DNA from: a virus
Lineage: Duplodnaviria > Caudoviricetes
Length of the DNA: 64,000 nucleotides
Virus record (IMG/VR): IMGVR_UViG_3300035505_000270
Coordinates: 1-64,000 of that record
Strand: one strand, 5' to 3'
Part shown: one piece after another, positions 18,008-25,000 of the stretch
How the letters are laid out: every line of letters begins with the position of its first letter
How positions within the stretch are numbered: the first letter of the stretch is position 1
Translations under genes and position numbers: made by a program
The notes under the pieces: generated by a model
Seen by the model: only the letters and a program-made list of their open reading frames with translations
What the model was told of the DNA's origin: nothing
Databases searched by the model: none

Positions 18008-18196
18008 ATGATAACAATTATTAAAAGAGGAACAAAACATCAAATAACTTGTAATTCATGTGGAGCGGTGCTAACATATGAAGATGAGGATATTCTCCGA
18101 ACTAGAACTATAGTTTGTATGGATATTATCAATGATGTAAAATATATTATTTGTCCTCAATGCAACCAAGAAATACATTTGGAGATAAGTAAATGA
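18008..18196 (+). CDS. Small Zn-ribbon protein
   Basis: CNSCG and CPQC pairs. Confidence 0.6.
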   Translation: MITIIKRGTKHQITCNSCGAVLTYEDEDILRTRTIVCMDIINDVKYIICPQCNQEIHLEISK

Positions 18197-20007
18197 AATA
18201 TAAATTAATTAAAGAGATTAATCCTAATTACTCTGCGTTAGAACAGGTATTAACCAATAGAGGGATTGAATATAATAATTTGTATCATTATATAAATACA
18301 ACAGATGCCGATATTAATTCACCTTTAGCTTTTGGTGAAGAAAATATGAAAAATGCGGCGGCCTCTATTATTACCGCAGTCAAGTATAATTTAAAGGCCT
18401 TAATCATTGTAGACAGTGATTGCGACGGTTTTACTTCCGCTGCCCTTCTTATTAATTATCTTTATACTTTATTTCCCGCTTGGACTAAACATTATTTAAC
18501 ATGGTATATCCACGAAGGAAAACAGCATGGTTTAAATGATTGTTATGAGCAAGCCTATACAGATGATTTTAAGTTGGTGATTCTTCCAGATGCAGGTTCT
18601 AATGATGTAGAATTTCATCAGAAATTATATGAAAATGGGATTACTACAGTTTGTTTAGATCATCATATCGTAGATGCAGAAATCACTTGCGGGATTGTAA
18701 TAAATAATCAAAATAGCGATTATCCTAATAAAGAATTGAGCGGAGTGGGAGTTACTTGGCAATTATGTAGATATTTAGATAGCCTTTTAAACACTGATTA
18801 TGCAAATCAATATCTTGACTTGGTAGCTCTTGGCAACACTGCAGATATGCAATCTTTGCAATCAATAGAAACAAAACATTTAATAAATAAAGGCTTTGAA
18901 CCTGAGAATATTCATAATCCTTTTATTTATTATATGTGGCAAAAGAATCAATTTAAATTAGGTGACCACATCACATCATGGGGCGCAGCTTTTTATATTG
19001 CACCTCTAGTTAATGCTATTGTGCGTAGTGGAACCCAAGAGGAAAAAGAATTAATTTTTGAGTCGATGTTAGCTTTTAAGGCTTTTAATTTAATTCCATC
19101 TACCAAAAGAGGGCATTTACCAGGAGAACAAGAAAAATTAGTAGAGCAAGCTGTAAGAACTTGTACCAATGTGAAGAATAGACAATCAAGAGCTCAAGAT
19201 GCAGGGATGGAACTTTTAGAGAATAAAATTATAGAAGATAATATGCTTGAACATAAAGTATTATTATTCTTGCTTGAACCTGGACAAATAGACAAAAATA
19301 TTGCGGGATTATGCGCAAATAAGGTAGCTTCACTTTATCAAAGACCTTGTGCTATTCTTACAAGAGTGGAAGAAATTAGTAAGGTAGAGTTTCCTAATAA
19401 TGATAAAGTAATTGCAGAAATGTATACTAATATATCATATCAAGGTTCTGCAAGAGGATGTGATATAGTTGGTATTACTAATTTTAAGAGTATCTGCGCG
19501 GGAACTGGGTTGACGAGTCTAGCCGCGGGTCATGAAGGAGCCTTCGGGCTAAACATCCCCGAAGAAAACATAAATAAATTCATTTCCGCAACAGATGAAG
19601 CATTAAAAGATATGCCTTCCGAAGCATTATATTATGTTGATTATATTTATAATGGAAATAATGTAAATCCTCAAAATATATTAGATATAGCCTCTATGGA
19701 TTGCTATTGGGGGAAGGATCTATCAGAAAGCATCGTTGCTATTGAGAATTTAACTATAGTACCGGAAATGGTAACTATTTATAATAAATCAAGTATAACA
19801 ATTAAAATTCAACTAAATAATAATGTAACTTTAATGTTATTTAATGCAACAGAAAAAGATTGTGATAAGTTGCAGACAAATAATACAGGCTATGTAAAAA
19901 TAAATTGTGTAGGCAAATGCCATCTAAATGAATGGAATGGAAATGTGTCTCCGCAGATTTTTATAACAGAGTATGAAATTGTTGACTCTAGTAAATATTT
20001 CTTTTAA
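18193..20007 (+). CDS. recJ: RecJ-like ssDNA exonuclease (DHH family)
   Basis: DSDCDG, DAG, DHH, LSGVGV, DLVALGNTAD, GSARG, GHEGAFG. Confidence 0.9.
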   Translation: MKYKLIKEINPNYSALEQVLTNRGIEYNNLYHYINTTDADINSPLAFGEENMKNAAASIITAVKYNLKALIIVDSDCDGFTSAALLINYLYTLFPAWTKHYLTWYIHEGKQHGLNDCYEQAYTDDFKLVILPDAGSNDVEFHQKLYENGITTVCLDHHIVDAEITCGIVINNQNSDYPNKELSGVGVTWQLCRYLDSLLNTDYANQYLDLVALGNTADMQSLQSIETKHLINKGFEPENIHNPFIYYMWQKNQFKLGDHITSWGAAFYIAPLVNAIVRSGTQEEKELIFESMLAFKAFNLIPSTKRGHLPGEQEKLVEQAVRTCTNVKNRQSRAQDAGMELLENKIIEDNMLEHKVLLFLLEPGQIDKNIAGLCANKVASLYQRPCAILTRVEEISKVEFPNNDKVIAEMYTNISYQGSARGCDIVGITNFKSICAGTGLTSLAAGHEGAFGLNIPEENINKFISATDEALKDMPSEALYYVDYIYNGNNVNPQNILDIASMDCYWGKDLSESIVAIENLTIVPEMVTIYNKSSITIKIQLNNNVTLMLFNATEKDCDKLQTNNTGYVKINCVGKCHLNEWNGNVSPQIFITEYEIVDSSKYFF

Positions 20008-20047: not shown

Positions 20048-20080
20048 GGGGTTTGGATTTTTTCAAACCCATTTTTACTT
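20048..20080 (+). terminator. Intrinsic terminator after recJ
   Basis: GGGTTTG/CAAACCC stem followed by ATTTTT. Confidence 0.6.
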
Positions 20081-20082
20081 AT

Positions 20083-20111
20083 TTGATTTTTATATAATTT
20101 TGTGATATAAT
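20083..20111 (+). promoter_or_regulatory. sigmaA-type promoter for RecD-like helicase
   Basis: TTGATT-17bp-TATAAT, then AGGAGG RBS and ATG 20149. Confidence 0.75.
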
Positions 20112-20148
20112 ATTTATAGAAAAAAAGAAAAGGAGGAAGTAGAACCTG

Positions 20149-21338
20149 ATGAAATTGACTAAAAAACAAGAAGAAGGTTTGAAAATTGCTATAGCCAGAT
20201 ACAGAAACAATAAAAAGTTTACTGTTATCTCTGGCTATGCCTAAAAGCAGGAACCGGGAAATCAACTCTAGTTCGTTTTATCATTGAGGCATTGGATGTA
20301 GAAGAAAGAAAAGTAGCTTATGCAACATATACAGGTAAAGCAGCAGAAGTATTACGCAAAAAGGGTAATCCAAATGCTATGACTTTACATAAATTATTGT
20401 ATGATAGTTTCCCTCGCCCGGATGGAGGTTTCTATCGCAAACCTAAAGTTTCATTGGACTTTACTATTGTTGTTGTAGATGAGGTATCAATGGTTCCTAC
20501 TGAAATGATAGATTTATTATTGAGTTACAATGTTTATGTAATTTTCTTAGGCGATCCATTTCAGCTAGGCCCGATCTCTAAAAAGGATGATAATCATCTA
20601 CTAGACAAGCCTCATGTATTCCTATCTGAGATTATGCGCCAAGCTGCAGAATCTGAAATTATTCAACTTACTATGAAAATACGTGAAGGTGAAGTCATAG
20701 ACTATTTTCAAGGGAAAGATATTTTAGTGATTCCTCCTAGTGAATTAGTTACTGGGCATATGACTTGGGCAGATCAAATTATTTGCGCTACTAATAGCAA
20801 AAGAAGAGCATTAAATGATCAAATGCGCGAACTGCTTGGTTATAGCGGGCTGCCGCAAACGGGCGAACGCATGATTTGCTTATCTAATTATTGGGAAGAT
20901 TTATCTGAAGATGGAGAATCTGCACTAGTAAATGGAACAACAGGTATTATTCAAAATCCTTTTGAAACCTATACTATGGCTCCACAATATATAAAAATGA
21001 AAAATCATCGCATGAATATAATTTGTGGAGAGTTTATTACAGAAGATGGAACAACTTTTCATTCTGTTGACATGGATAAAAAAATGATACAAACTGGAGA
21101 ACCTTGTCTTGATTGGAGAGAATCTTATGCTCTTGGTAAATTAAGAAATAAAATAGGGGATATCATACCTAGGCAGTTTGCGTATGGGTATGCGATTACG
21201 GCTCATAAAGCACAAGGCAGCGAATTTGATAAAGTTTTAGTCATAGAAGAGTCTTTTCCATTTGATAAAATTGAACACGCCCGGTGGCTATACACAGCTG
21301 CAACTCGTAGCGCAGAGAAGCTTGTTTTAGTGAGGTAG
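20149..21338 (+). CDS. SF1B (RecD2/Dda-like) helicase with an 8-nt coding gap in Walker A
   Basis: MKLTKKQ...SGYA (20149-20241), stop TAA, then GTGKST in another frame from 20250; DEVSMV, LGDPFQL, AITAHKAQGSEFD, LYTAATRS intact. Confidence 0.85.
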
Positions 21339-21731: not shown

Positions 21732-22019
21732 ATGTATTCCAAAAAAGAACAGTTATTAAATCTTATCAACAATATAAACGTAGAAAATAAAAACTATTCA
21801 AAGTCCTATTGGTGGGGAATTAATAATCCTTATGCTGATGAAATGGAAAGTTATCCGTATATAAAAAGTATGTTTATATCTGACAATGCTTTTGAAAGAG
21901 CATGGATAAATGAATGTTGGGAACTTGTAAATGATAAAATCGGTTTTTGGGCAGATAATTTAGATTATATTCAAATATTAGAATCCATACTAAGGAGTAA
22001 AAATGAATTATCCAGGTAG
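21732..22019 (+). CDS. Hypothetical protein
   Basis: ORF with promoter and RBS, overlapping the dnaE start. Confidence 0.55.
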   Translation: MYSKKEQLLNLINNINVENKNYSKSYWWGINNPYADEMESYPYIKSMFISDNAFERAWINECWELVNDKIGFWADNLDYIQILESILRSKNELSR

Positions 22020-25000
22020 TTTACATAATCATACCCAGATGTCGAATTTCAGGATTCGGGATTGTATTATTAAAGAGGAAGATTTAATTAATAAAGCAAT
22101 AGAATTAAATCATTCAGTTATAGCAGTTACAGACCATGAAACTATAGCATCTGCAGTGAGAGTAGAAAAAATATATAATAAAATTAAAGAGAAAAATATT
22201 CCATTAAAAGTTATAATGGGTAATGAGATTTATTTATGTAGAGATGGTTTAAATAATGAAAATTATGTAGCGGGAGAAGATAAATATTATCATTTTATTC
22301 TTTTAGCTAAAGATTTGCAAGGCTATCAACAAATTTGTGAATTATCTACTAGAGCTTGGATGAGAAGTTATGTGAGTAGAGGCTTAAGAAGAGTTCCTAC
22401 TTATTATCAAGATATAGTAGAAATTATAGGAAAGAAGCCAGGCCATGTTATTGGTTCTAGCGCTTGCCTTGGTGGTATGCTTGCAACTCAACTTTTAAAA
22501 TATAGAGATACTCAAGAGCAAGACACAGATTTATGGAATAAAATCTTAAATTGGTGTCAATTAATATGTAACACTTTTGGCGGGAAAGATTATTTTTATT
22601 TAGAATTACAGCCTTCTGCTTCAAAAGAGCAAACATATGTAAATAGAAAATTAATAGAAATATCTAATTTATTAAATATAGATTATATTATTACTACAGA
22701 TTCTCATTATTTACAAAAAGAAGATAAAAATATTCATAAAGCTTTTCTTCATGCCCAAGATGGAGATAGAGAAGTAGATTCATTTTATGCTACAACTTAT
22801 TTAATGAACACAGAAGAATTAGAATCTCATTTAGATTTAACAAGAGAGGAATTAGATAGGGCTTATAGTAATATTACAAAAATTCAAAATTTATGTGAAG
22901 ATTATTCTATTTTAAAACCTTTAAAAATTCCTAGTCTTAAATGGAATGATTATAGTAATATTTCTTTAACTCAAGAATGGATAGATAAAATTCCTATGTT
23001 AGAAACTTTTAATAATTCTTCTTTCGACGGAGATAAAAAATTAGTTAAAGCAATAATAGTAGGTATTAATAAACATGAAGATTTACAAAATCAAGAAGCT
23101 TATAATGAAATTAATAGCAATCTGCAAATGACTTGGGTATCTTCTAACGTAAATAAAGCACATTGGTCAGCCTATTATCTTAATCTTCAAAAGATTATAG
23201 ATTTATGTTGGGAAGCAAATTCTATAGTAGGCCCAGGAAGAGGCTCAGGTGTAGGTTTTATTCTTTTATATTGTTTAGGTATTACACAAATTAATCCTTT
23301 AAGAGAAGAAACTAAAACTTATAGTTGGAGATTAACCCATAGGGTTTAAAGGTCTCCTAGGCATGGTGACATGCCTACAAAAAACCTCGTGAACGCAAGA
23401 AAAAGCGGTGTGAAATTATTAAAATTAATTTTGCTAACGGTGGACAGTTTTAATTAAACTCAATACCGTGCTTTTTTACTTTTCATTGGAAAAACAAGTG
23501 AAAGTAAGGAGTGTATCGACTATTCCTGATGAGTGTAAGGAAGTAGAATAGATTTTATCACTATTCGAAGCGCGAGGACTCTCCTTTATTTTCTTTTAAA
23601 CCGAAAGGAGAAAATAAATGGGACATATTTATAAAATTACAAATTTAATTAACCAAAAAGTTTACATAGGGCAAACTATTAAAACAGTTGAAAAAAAGAT
23701 TTCAACAACATAAAAATAATAGTAATAAAGAGTACTTTTCTCAAATTATTTTATATAAAGCATTTAATAAATATGGTATTAATAACTTTAAATGTGAAGA
23801 AATTGAAGAAATTGATAATGAATATTTAAATGAAAGAGAAAAATATTGGATAGAATATTATGATAGTTATTTTAATGGTTACAATAGCACCTTGGGCGGA
23901 AGAGCTACTCAATTATATAATTGGGATATAGATGATATTATAAAAAATATATGAGATTAAAATCTGCTCGGAAGGTAGCATTAGAAATTGGCTGTGATCA
24001 TTCAACTATAGATAGAATATTGAATGAAAATGGAGTTAAACGATTTACCCCAGGACAGCAACAATCAAAACCATTAATTATAATAGATAAAGAAAATAAC
24101 AAACATAATTTTGAAACGACAAGAGAAGCTGCTGAATGGTTAATTAAAAATAAATACACAAAAATGATAAATCCTACAATAGTAAGGCAAGAAATATGTA
24201 ATAGGATTAAAAATAATAAAAAGTATTTAGGTTTGGAAATATTTTATAAAGGAGAGTAAGAGATAGTCAGCTCCATTGGTGACAATGGAAAAAGTGTTTT
24301 GAACCCAGAACGTGTATCTGTTCTTGATATTGATTTTGATATAGAAGGTAGTAAAAGAGCACAAGTTTTATCAAAATTTAGAGAATTTTATGGTGAAGAT
24401 AGAGTATCAAATGTAATTACTTTTAGAACAGAAAAAACTAAATCTGCTATATTAACTGCAGCAAGAGGCTTAGGTATAGATAATGATGAGGCACAGTATT
24501 TAGCAAGTCTCATTCCCGCAGATAGAGGTCAAATAAGAAGTTTATCAGAAGTATATTATGGTAATCCCGAAAAAGATTTTAAACCAGTTACCGCCTTTGT
24601 TCAAGCTATGGATACAGATTACCAAGAACTGTGGCAAGTAGCTCAAAAAATAGAAGGGTTAATATGCGGAACAGGTATTCATGCGGGTGGTGTTATCTTC
24701 GTGGATGAACCCTTTACCTTATCTACTGGATTAATGCGAGCGCCGGATGGTACAATCTGTACTCAATTTGATCTTCATGACGCAGAGGCCGTGAGCCTTA
24801 TCAAGTATGATGCGCTCTCAGTCGAGGCTATGGATAAACTTCATGTCTGTCTTGATTTAATTTGCAATTATGGATATGAAACAAGAGAAGCTACTTTACG
24901 TGAAACATACGAAAAAATTATAGGTATTTATAAATTAGATAGAACATCTGAAGATATGTGGAAAATGGTGTGGGAACATAAAATTTTATCATTATTTCAG

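Follow-up and report, generated by a model that had tools for sequence, protein, structure and literature searches.

Within its Walker A motif, a helicase gene carried by a phage (Duplodnaviria; Caudoviricetes) is interrupted by 8 nucleotides (nt), TAAAAGCA, which are probably a translational coding gap that the ribosome crosses by hopping and that was left behind by an HNH homing cassette. The gene lies in the first 64,000 nt (the whole stretch that was analyzed, here referred to as "the window") of the IMG/VR phage record IMGVR_UViG_3300035505_000270, which is ∼73 kb long and estimated to be ∼53% complete. A preliminary description of the window, made from its letters alone, had proposed a bypass from take-off codon GCC over an adjacent stop codon to landing codon GCA, aided by a 5′ hairpin, and the comparative evidence assembled here from related alleles speaks in favor of such a bypass. 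Beyond this one gene, we think it likely that short-range hopping (over 5 to 8 nt, across a stop codon, and driven by a hairpin that folds again just behind the ribosome) is a recurrent natural means by which HNH homing elements settle in the best-conserved motif of an essential phage gene and yet spare its function.

The interrupted helicase gene and its relatives

The layout that had been described, an ATG at 20149 followed by GCC, TAA, AA, GCA, and GGA, is present in the window, with a promoter-like site and a GGAGG upstream. From the ATG, the first part of the gene runs to the codons TCT GGC TAT GCC and then meets the stop codon; after the gap, the codons GGA ACC GGG AAA TCA ACT begin a frame of 362 codons (∼360 had been reported as intact) that is open to the stop at 21336-21338. 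Skipping exactly the 8 nt joins 31 and 362 codons into a protein of 393 amino acids (aa) and restores the canonical Walker A sequence GYAGTGKST, as the preliminary description had read it; the motif GxxGxGK[ST] is complete in the window only after the hop. This is the same P-loop as in continuous orthologues, which read TVISGYAGTGKSTLVRFII uninterrupted and whose modal length is 393 aa. Most relatives (∼75% identity) are continuous 393-aa proteins with TVISGYAGTGKSTLV, matching the product of the 8-nt skip, and the joined product is collinear with them. The helicase body matches the Pfam families AAA_30 (5.7e-16), UvrD_C_2 (4.6e-16), and AAA_19, and orthologue P0003 matches the Protein Data Bank structures of RecD2 (3e1s, 3.8e-19) and Dda (3upu, 7e-8); judged by sequence, the window gene is an SF1B RecD/Dda-like helicase. 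It is present as a single copy within the 73-kb record. Since the same 8 nt recur letter for letter in three independent Logan assemblies, each built from a different sequencing run (L043, L044, and L045), we rule out an assembly error as their origin.

Interrupted alleles of this helicase were gathered by pattern scans of IMG/VR for inserts of 5 to 8 nt, using a search pattern in which the 3′ arm of the hairpin was fixed; counts of alleles and inserts are lower bounds, and 20 continuous alleles served as the contrast set. We found at least 56 distinct interrupted alleles with at least 30 distinct inserts, each of which separates the Ala codon of GYA from the Gly codon that opens GTGKST. The gap, codon pair, and hairpin that the preliminary description expected to see conserved thus recur in many orthologues, which are interrupted at the same boundary by 5 to 8 nt. 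Among the alleles listed, 21 inserts are 5 nt long, 14 are 6 nt, 10 are 7 nt, and 11 are 8 nt; a scan of this helicase family for gaps of 9 to 38 nt found none. Returning to the helicase frame requires a change of +2 for inserts of 5 or 8 nt, of 0 for 6 nt, and of +1 for 7 nt. Because all three frame relations are present, no single frameshift or readthrough event fits the family, and a frame-independent hop would.

The first codon of the insert is a stop in 54 of the 56 listed alleles (TAA in 36, TGA in 11, and TAG in 7) and CGG in the other two. Some of the phages appear to read TAG as glutamine, with in-frame TAG at conserved Q positions as in genetic code 15 (alleles L048, L054, L058, L059, L061, L073, L089, L096, L132, L136, and L147), and the inserts of these alleles start with TAA or TGA, never with TAG. 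L104 and L128, with the insert CGGTG, have no stop in the gap; CGG (Arg) would occupy the A site, and GTG would serve as the landing triplet. Should CGG be rare or slow to decode in the hosts, these two alleles may be a parallel to the gaps of Streptomyces phages that are triggered by UUA.

Both sides of the gap are under purifying selection. Over the 30 codons before the gap, dN/dS is 0.27 in interrupted and 0.24 in continuous alleles, and over the first 20 codons after it the value is 0.25; ∼0.25 on each side argues against the relaxed selection that had been raised as a possibility. All 56 listed alleles keep the P-loop codons GTGKST intact beyond the gap, and in most of them these codons lie upstream of any start codon. 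The first possible start after the gap in the window is TTG 20292, 14 codons beyond the P-loop; a protein begun there would lack Walker A, as had been pointed out. Given purifying selection on both sides and a P-loop with no start codon before it, the 31-codon frame and the P-loop must both be translated as parts of a working protein. Interrupted alleles are spread over lineages down to ∼45% identity, and a pseudogene or relaxed selection was rejected on the grounds of dN/dS and of persistence over such deep divergence.

The spacing from G[YF]A to GxGK is constant in 177 of 181 protein matches, and the four exceptions are TAG inserts that gene callers rendered as Q. Public predictions mis-annotate interrupted alleles in several ways (P0042, P0061, P0075, P0117, P0108, and P0112): TAG is read as Q (GYAQVGTGKST), a false start is placed at the GTG of TAGGTG (MGTGKST...), or two open reading frames (ORFs) of 31 and 348 aa are called in place of one gene. 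Through such splits, false GTG starts, and TAG-as-Q readings, what would be functional helicases are currently annotated as fragments.

Signals at the gap

Every one of the 56 listed interrupted alleles has GCC or GCT as its take-off codon, whereas 9 of the 20 continuous alleles use GCA or GCG at this position (Fisher p = 1e-6). The last triplet of every listed insert is GCN (19 alleles), GUN (17), or ACY (20); that is, the landing triplet is an Ala codon or lies one transition from it, in which case it would face the Ala anticodon with a G-U or A-C opposition. The matched codon pair of the preliminary description therefore stands for the window (GCC and GCA) and for take-off throughout the family, but landing in the family also occurs on GUN and ACY. 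For all 38 combinations of take-off codon, insert, and resume codon, the landing triplet is the first of its class to be encountered in any register (null expectation, ∼0.18 per insert). This pattern is what a scanning peptidyl-tRNA would find as the first Ala-like triplet, and we regard it as suggestive rather than proven.

The long stem-loop that had been described as reaching up to the take-off codon is well supported. At 20188-20240 the window hairpin has a predicted stability of -20 to -25 kcal/mol (z = -3.7 versus dinucleotide shuffles), and none of 200 shuffles was as stable. Its GC/GC step pairs bases 1 and 2 of the take-off codon GCC. Across the family, the 66 nt up to the take-off codon have a median minimum free energy of -21.6 kcal/mol in interrupted alleles versus -8.1 kcal/mol in continuous ones (Mann-Whitney p = 4e-10), and shuffling of synonymous codons gives z < -2 for 53 of the 56 interrupted alleles listed versus 1 of the 20 continuous alleles. 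In 52 of the 56 listed alleles, the distance between the end of the 3′ arm and that of the take-off codon is 0 to 3 nt, and the arm often pairs codon bases 1 and 2; in L051 and L052, the helix forms in a different register. The 5′ arm imposes the residues A[VI]AR, at positions where continuous alleles are polar, and the 31-aa N-terminus differs from that of continuous alleles chiefly at these hairpin-dictated residues. The window's first part carries such a cassette-type N-terminus (IAIARY). If the last 15 nt are removed, as they would be held inside the ribosome at take-off, ∼-6.5 kcal/mol is left; with so little stability remaining, the helix would have to re-form behind the ribosome.

These observations are consistent with the following course of events, in which we infer from sequence comparison the hop itself, its efficiency, and the pulling role of the hairpin. 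A ribosome arriving at the end of the 31-codon ORF would hold peptidyl-tRNA-Ala on GCC 20239-20241 with TAA in the A site. The hairpin would by then be melted, its 3′ arm lying within the ribosome immediately 5′ of the P site, and could re-form behind the ribosome by pairing the first bases of the take-off codon, which would favor dissociation of codon from anticodon and forward movement of the mRNA. The retained peptidyl-tRNA-Ala would then re-pair with the first downstream Ala-like triplet, GCA 20247-20249, and decoding would restart at GGA to yield the 393-aa RecD/Dda-like helicase with the P-loop GYAGTGKST.

Two alleles with the insert TGACT, L136 and L147, have a strong 3′ stem in which CTTGACTGGAA is paired with ...TTTAGTCAAG, enclosing the stop codon and the landing triplet, and this stem resembles the take-off stem-loop of T4 gene 60.

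Origin of the gap and competing explanations

Genes of one HNH endonuclease family (Pfam HNH_2 or HNH; E values of 1e-59 to 1e-106 with a profile of its own) end at the helicase start, which they overlap mostly by ∼11 nt. Such a gene is found at 18 of 50 interrupted loci versus 0 of 20 continuous loci (p = 0.0016). In L039, L079, and L121, the HNH gene is closely preceded by a relic of the native helicase N-terminus, which is normal up to ...SG[YF]A, uses GCG or GCA, has a weak hairpin, and breaks off exactly past the Ala codon. The relics, cut between Ala and Gly, indicate that the element inserted precisely at GYA|GTGK and that the gap is its 3′ end. Many continuous orthologues supply the empty insertion site. 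On a tree of helicase bodies, a minimum of 13 changes is required to account for the interrupted state, and 9 of these fall on well-supported branches; the N-terminal segments of interrupted alleles are more alike than their helicase bodies predict; and L042 and the continuous allele L091 are ∼97% identical from the insert onward and ∼60% identical before it, with the mosaic breakpoint at the insert.

We propose that a selfish element of ∼0.8 kb inserted into the P-loop exactly at the boundary of its Ala and Gly codons, bringing, in order, a spacer, the HNH gene, a second copy of the helicase N-terminus that carries the hairpin, and the gap. The gap would keep the element from re-creating an uninterrupted GCN|GGN site at its right junction and might thereby confer self-immunity as in T4 mobA-gene 60. 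The window's own copy would have lost the HNH gene, the last 19 nt of which would double as the helicase ribosome-binding site. No HNH gene of this family was found in the window's 73-kb record; what remains is a 19-nt match to the 3′ end of that gene, at 20126-20144, a stretch that in relatives encodes the HNH C-terminus ...EKEEVE and is seen in L049 and also in L039, L040, and L042. The window is thus probably an endonuclease-less derivative of the cassette, with this stretch as the leftover HNH tail.

The same P-loop is also the site of an intein. Ala-1 inteins with LAGLIDADG domains lie 12 nt downstream of the hop site, at GxGK|AQP...THN|TT, for example, at L001:425-2692 (in a 94% relative of the window helicase) and in P0121-P0198, and they occur in at least 61 protein clusters. 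Three kinds of allele thus exist at the helicase locus, namely, empty ones, those with the intein, and those with the HNH/hop cassette, and no allele examined holds both the intein and the cassette. An intein homing endonuclease was considered as the driver of the gap and was dropped, as the HNH cassette accounts for the gap directly. One continuous helicase allele (L007:1798-2508) has a GIY-YIG homing endonuclease with NUMOD3 directly upstream of its start and no gap.

Several points weigh against a hop left by a homing cassette. Cognate landing on an Ala codon occurs in only 19 of the 56 listed alleles, about one-third; the commonest landing triplet, ACT (18 of 56), has a first-position mismatch; and the Ala-like class (GCN, GUN, and ACY) was defined after inspection of the data. 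These near-cognate landings weaken, without breaking, the rule of matched codons for bypassing, as far as it can be read from sequence. Formal covariation in the stem is weak, with pair 16-63 the sole covarying pair and a search pattern that had fixed the 3′ arm, and RNAalifold on the stem alignment did not recover the helix; the case for the hairpin relies instead on the synonymous-codon shuffles and on the contrast between interrupted and continuous alleles. Three alleles (L132, L136, and L147) have no 5′ hairpin. Since a single cassette carries both the hairpin and the gap, their co-occurrence in part reflects shared descent. The window has no HNH gene, and its 19-nt tail could be conserved merely as a ribosome-binding site. 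A second helicase elsewhere in the genome is conceivable, in view of the ∼53% completeness of the record.

Expression might instead depend on a mixture of local recoding events with no hop, namely, readthrough at 6-nt inserts and +1 or +2 (equivalent to -1) shifts at those of 7, 5, and 8 nt, with the P-loop gaining one or two residues (GYA-K-A-GTGKST in the window). We consider this quite unlikely. Dropping only 2 nt in the window does give AKAGTGKST, which still fits [AG]xxxxGK[ST], the last triplets of the inserts code for small residues (A, V, or T), and a few gene callers read the TAG inserts as Q; but three or four separate mechanisms would be required at one site, and the alleles share no common slippery sequence. 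A -1 frameshift as such was rejected: the overlap at 20214-20244 offers only T AAA AAG, which is unconserved and gives a wrong product in which beta-strand 1 is replaced, and the 6- and 7-nt alleles need frames of 0 and +1. After a +1 or +2 shift from GCY, moreover, the P-site tRNA-Ala would be left without a pairing partner. An extra P-loop residue occurs in no continuous orthologue, the four exceptions to constant spacing being the TAG artifacts, and the stop codon or CGG at the start of every insert would be needless for a tolerated sense insertion. Very little probability attaches to a gene simply broken by a selfish element, with no functional helicase, a truncated protein from a start such as TTG 20292, or two polypeptides. 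That callers annotate ORFs of 31 and 348 aa, that GTG directly follows TAG in L039-L041, and that an incomplete record leaves room for a second helicase would suit a broken gene; selection before the gap that equals that on continuous alleles, an intact GTGKST despite its position mostly upstream of any start codon, and the persistence of interrupted alleles across lineages would not. The P-loop lysine of SF1 helicases is needed for ATP binding, and a product without it could not bind ATP.

Removal of the 8 nt from the RNA, by a micro-intron, editing, or polymerase slippage with the hairpin as recognition element, strikes us as extremely improbable. That a conserved hairpin lies flush with the gap might in principle point to a processing signal, but the inserts share only their stop codon and Ala-like end, the window has no homopolymer run for slippage (A4 at most), and an Rfam search of both strands (gathering score, E ≤ 0.1) found no RNA family or intron at the hop site or elsewhere in the window. 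The rules of a stop codon first and a tRNA-like landing suit a ribosome rather than a nuclease or ligase, and we know of no bacterial or phage system that excises 5 to 8 nt. What a hop would be for is a separate matter, in which the possible purposes are not mutually exclusive. The preliminary description had the hop control helicase output, for which we found nothing in support; that it is kept mainly as such a regulator and not as a by-product of homing is unlikely. A hop at codon 31 would be a cheap throttle on expression, HNH-less cassettes such as that of the window persist under selection, and the gaps of Streptomyces phage Hau3 have been proposed to be regulatory (PMC10732093). Against this stand the frequent gain and loss of the gap on the helicase tree, its association with the HNH gene, the relic N-termini that mark arrival by insertion of a mobile element, and the lack of a gap in most orthologues. 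The gap appears to be accounted for better by an HNH homing cassette, of which it would be the 3′-terminal piece, than by control of output.

The features of the helicase region are collected in Table 1. The TGATATAAT block of the promoter-like region is also present in L042. No tRNA gene was detected in the window, and a suppressor or special tRNA nearby was thus not found; a search for close relatives gave no blastn match to GenBank phages; and a crude screen of the same 73-kb genome revealed no further hop-like sites. Downstream of the helicase, the interrupted DNA polymerase III alpha gene (a dnaE piece at 22003-23349 and a further piece downstream) contains a GIY-YIG endonuclease-like ORF at 23618-23954; a frameshift close to an A-run appears to divide this ORF in two (23618-23713 and 23688-23954), and a 102-aa ORF comes next (23951-24259).

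Table 1. Positions of features in and around the interrupted helicase gene of the window
Feature	Position	Strand	Remarks
DHH/RecJ-like gene, upstream neighbor of the helicase	18193-20007		Pfam DHH, RecJ_OB
Terminator-like hairpin, 3′ of the RecJ-like gene	20049-20070	+	9-bp stem and T-run
Promoter-like TTGATT-17-TATAAT, extended -10 TG	20083-20111	+	10/12 matches; consensus match only
19 nt matching the 3′ end of the relatives' HNH gene	20126-20144	+	19/19 identical to L049
Helicase Shine-Dalgarno sequence GGAGG	20132-20136	+	within the 19-nt HNH-tail match
Helicase ORF part 1, 31 codons, start to ...TVISGYA	20149-20241	+	beta-strand 1 and first half of the Walker A loop
5′ hairpin	20188-20240	+	lower stem ATAGCCAGA / TCTGGCTAT and GC/GC; upper stem ACAG/CTGT, AAAC/GTTT
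Candidate take-off codon GCC (Ala)	20239-20241	+	
Putative coding gap TAAAAGCA	20242-20249	+	stop TAA 20242-20244, spacer AA, landing triplet GCA 20247-20249
Helicase ORF part 2, 362 codons and stop	20250-21338	+	resume codon GGA, then GTGKST...; SF1B RecD/Dda-like body

Comparison with known bypassing systems

To our knowledge, efficient bypassing has for 35 years meant essentially T4 gene 60 and its homologues, plus the mitochondrial byps and a few Streptomyces phage candidates, and a literature search found no published description of this helicase case. Bypassing as such is already known; new here would be the very short gap, the use of Ala codons, a hairpin directly behind the P site, the P-loop of a helicase as the target, and natural length variation over all frames.

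The bypass of T4 gene 60 and the MobA endonuclease have reportedly been described by Huang et al. in 1988 and by Bonocora et al. in 2011. As in the helicase family, the T4 gap lies within an essential DNA-metabolism gene and is the 3′ end of an HNH cassette whose ORF overlaps the start of the downstream frame, the cassette brings a substitute copy of a segment of the host gene, and relatives have lost the endonuclease and kept the gap. The T4 bypass cassette ends the MobA HNH element, and the mobA-gene 60 architecture includes endonuclease-less derivatives (10.1101/2022.08.31.505936). Bypassing in the forward direction is promoted there by the 5′ stem-loop, or pairing of the exiting mRNA (10.1101/2024.12.09.627546), an idea that re-formation of the helicase hairpin behind the ribosome would match. 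The differences are as evident. The T4 gap is 50 nt long (20 in one clade) and leads from Gly GGA to GGA, whereas that of the helicase family measures 5 to 8 nt and would lead from Ala GCY to GCN, GUN, or ACY; a take-off stem-loop encloses the stop in T4 and is absent here except perhaps in L136 and L147; a nascent-peptide signal was not recognized in the helicase family, for which no separate peptide motif was looked for; and the target is topoisomerase II there and the P-loop of an SF1B helicase here. The likeness to MobA is one of architecture, and the helicase case is known from sequence alone.

Short gaps in Streptomyces phage Hau3's terminase gene were reportedly described by Smith et al. 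in 2013. There are two of them, each 10 nt long and starting with the rare codon UUA (PMC10732093). They share with the helicase gaps a natural occurrence in a phage gene, a slow codon in the A site, a proposed 5′ stem-loop stimulator, and contiguous orthologues. The Hau3 type, however, comprises ∼3 genes of 100, with a fixed gap of 10 nt and a proposed regulation via a missing tRNA, whereas the helicase family comprises at least 56 alleles, with gaps of four lengths and true stop codons, and a homing endonuclease is linked to it.

Two further systems are treated in passages of a 2016 review (PMC5009743). In the low-level, synthetic "stop hops" of Escherichia coli reporters (Weiss et al. 1987), a peptidyl-tRNA passes a stop codon to a matching codon a few nucleotides on, independently of frame, much as proposed here; those reporters are synthetic and inefficient, whereas the helicase gaps are natural. 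The mitochondria of Magnusiomyces capitatus have numerous short mobile inserts, called "byps," that translation bypasses (Lang et al. 2014), and there, too, the match between take-off and landing codon is not perfect in every case; the byps differ in being 27 to 55 nt long, in the relaxed decoding of the mitochondrion, in their many sites in many genes, and in having no endonuclease. According to the same review, no natural in-frame stop-hop was known, and shorter counterparts of the known bypass had long been presumed (PMC5009743).

If the hop proposed here is real, its 6-nt alleles would be the first natural in-frame stop-hops, and the at least 30 gap variants would form a natural set of mutants from which the rules of take-off, scanning, and landing could be read. 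The protein context is the same throughout, and what varies is the length of the gap, the stop codon, the landing triplet, and the register of the hairpin, which makes the roles of an exit-side hairpin and of near-cognate re-pairing directly testable. The helicase cassettes would then be a second independent lineage of endonuclease plus bypass beside T4 gene 60, which suggests that bypassing is perhaps tied to homing endonucleases in general and not as an oddity of T4.

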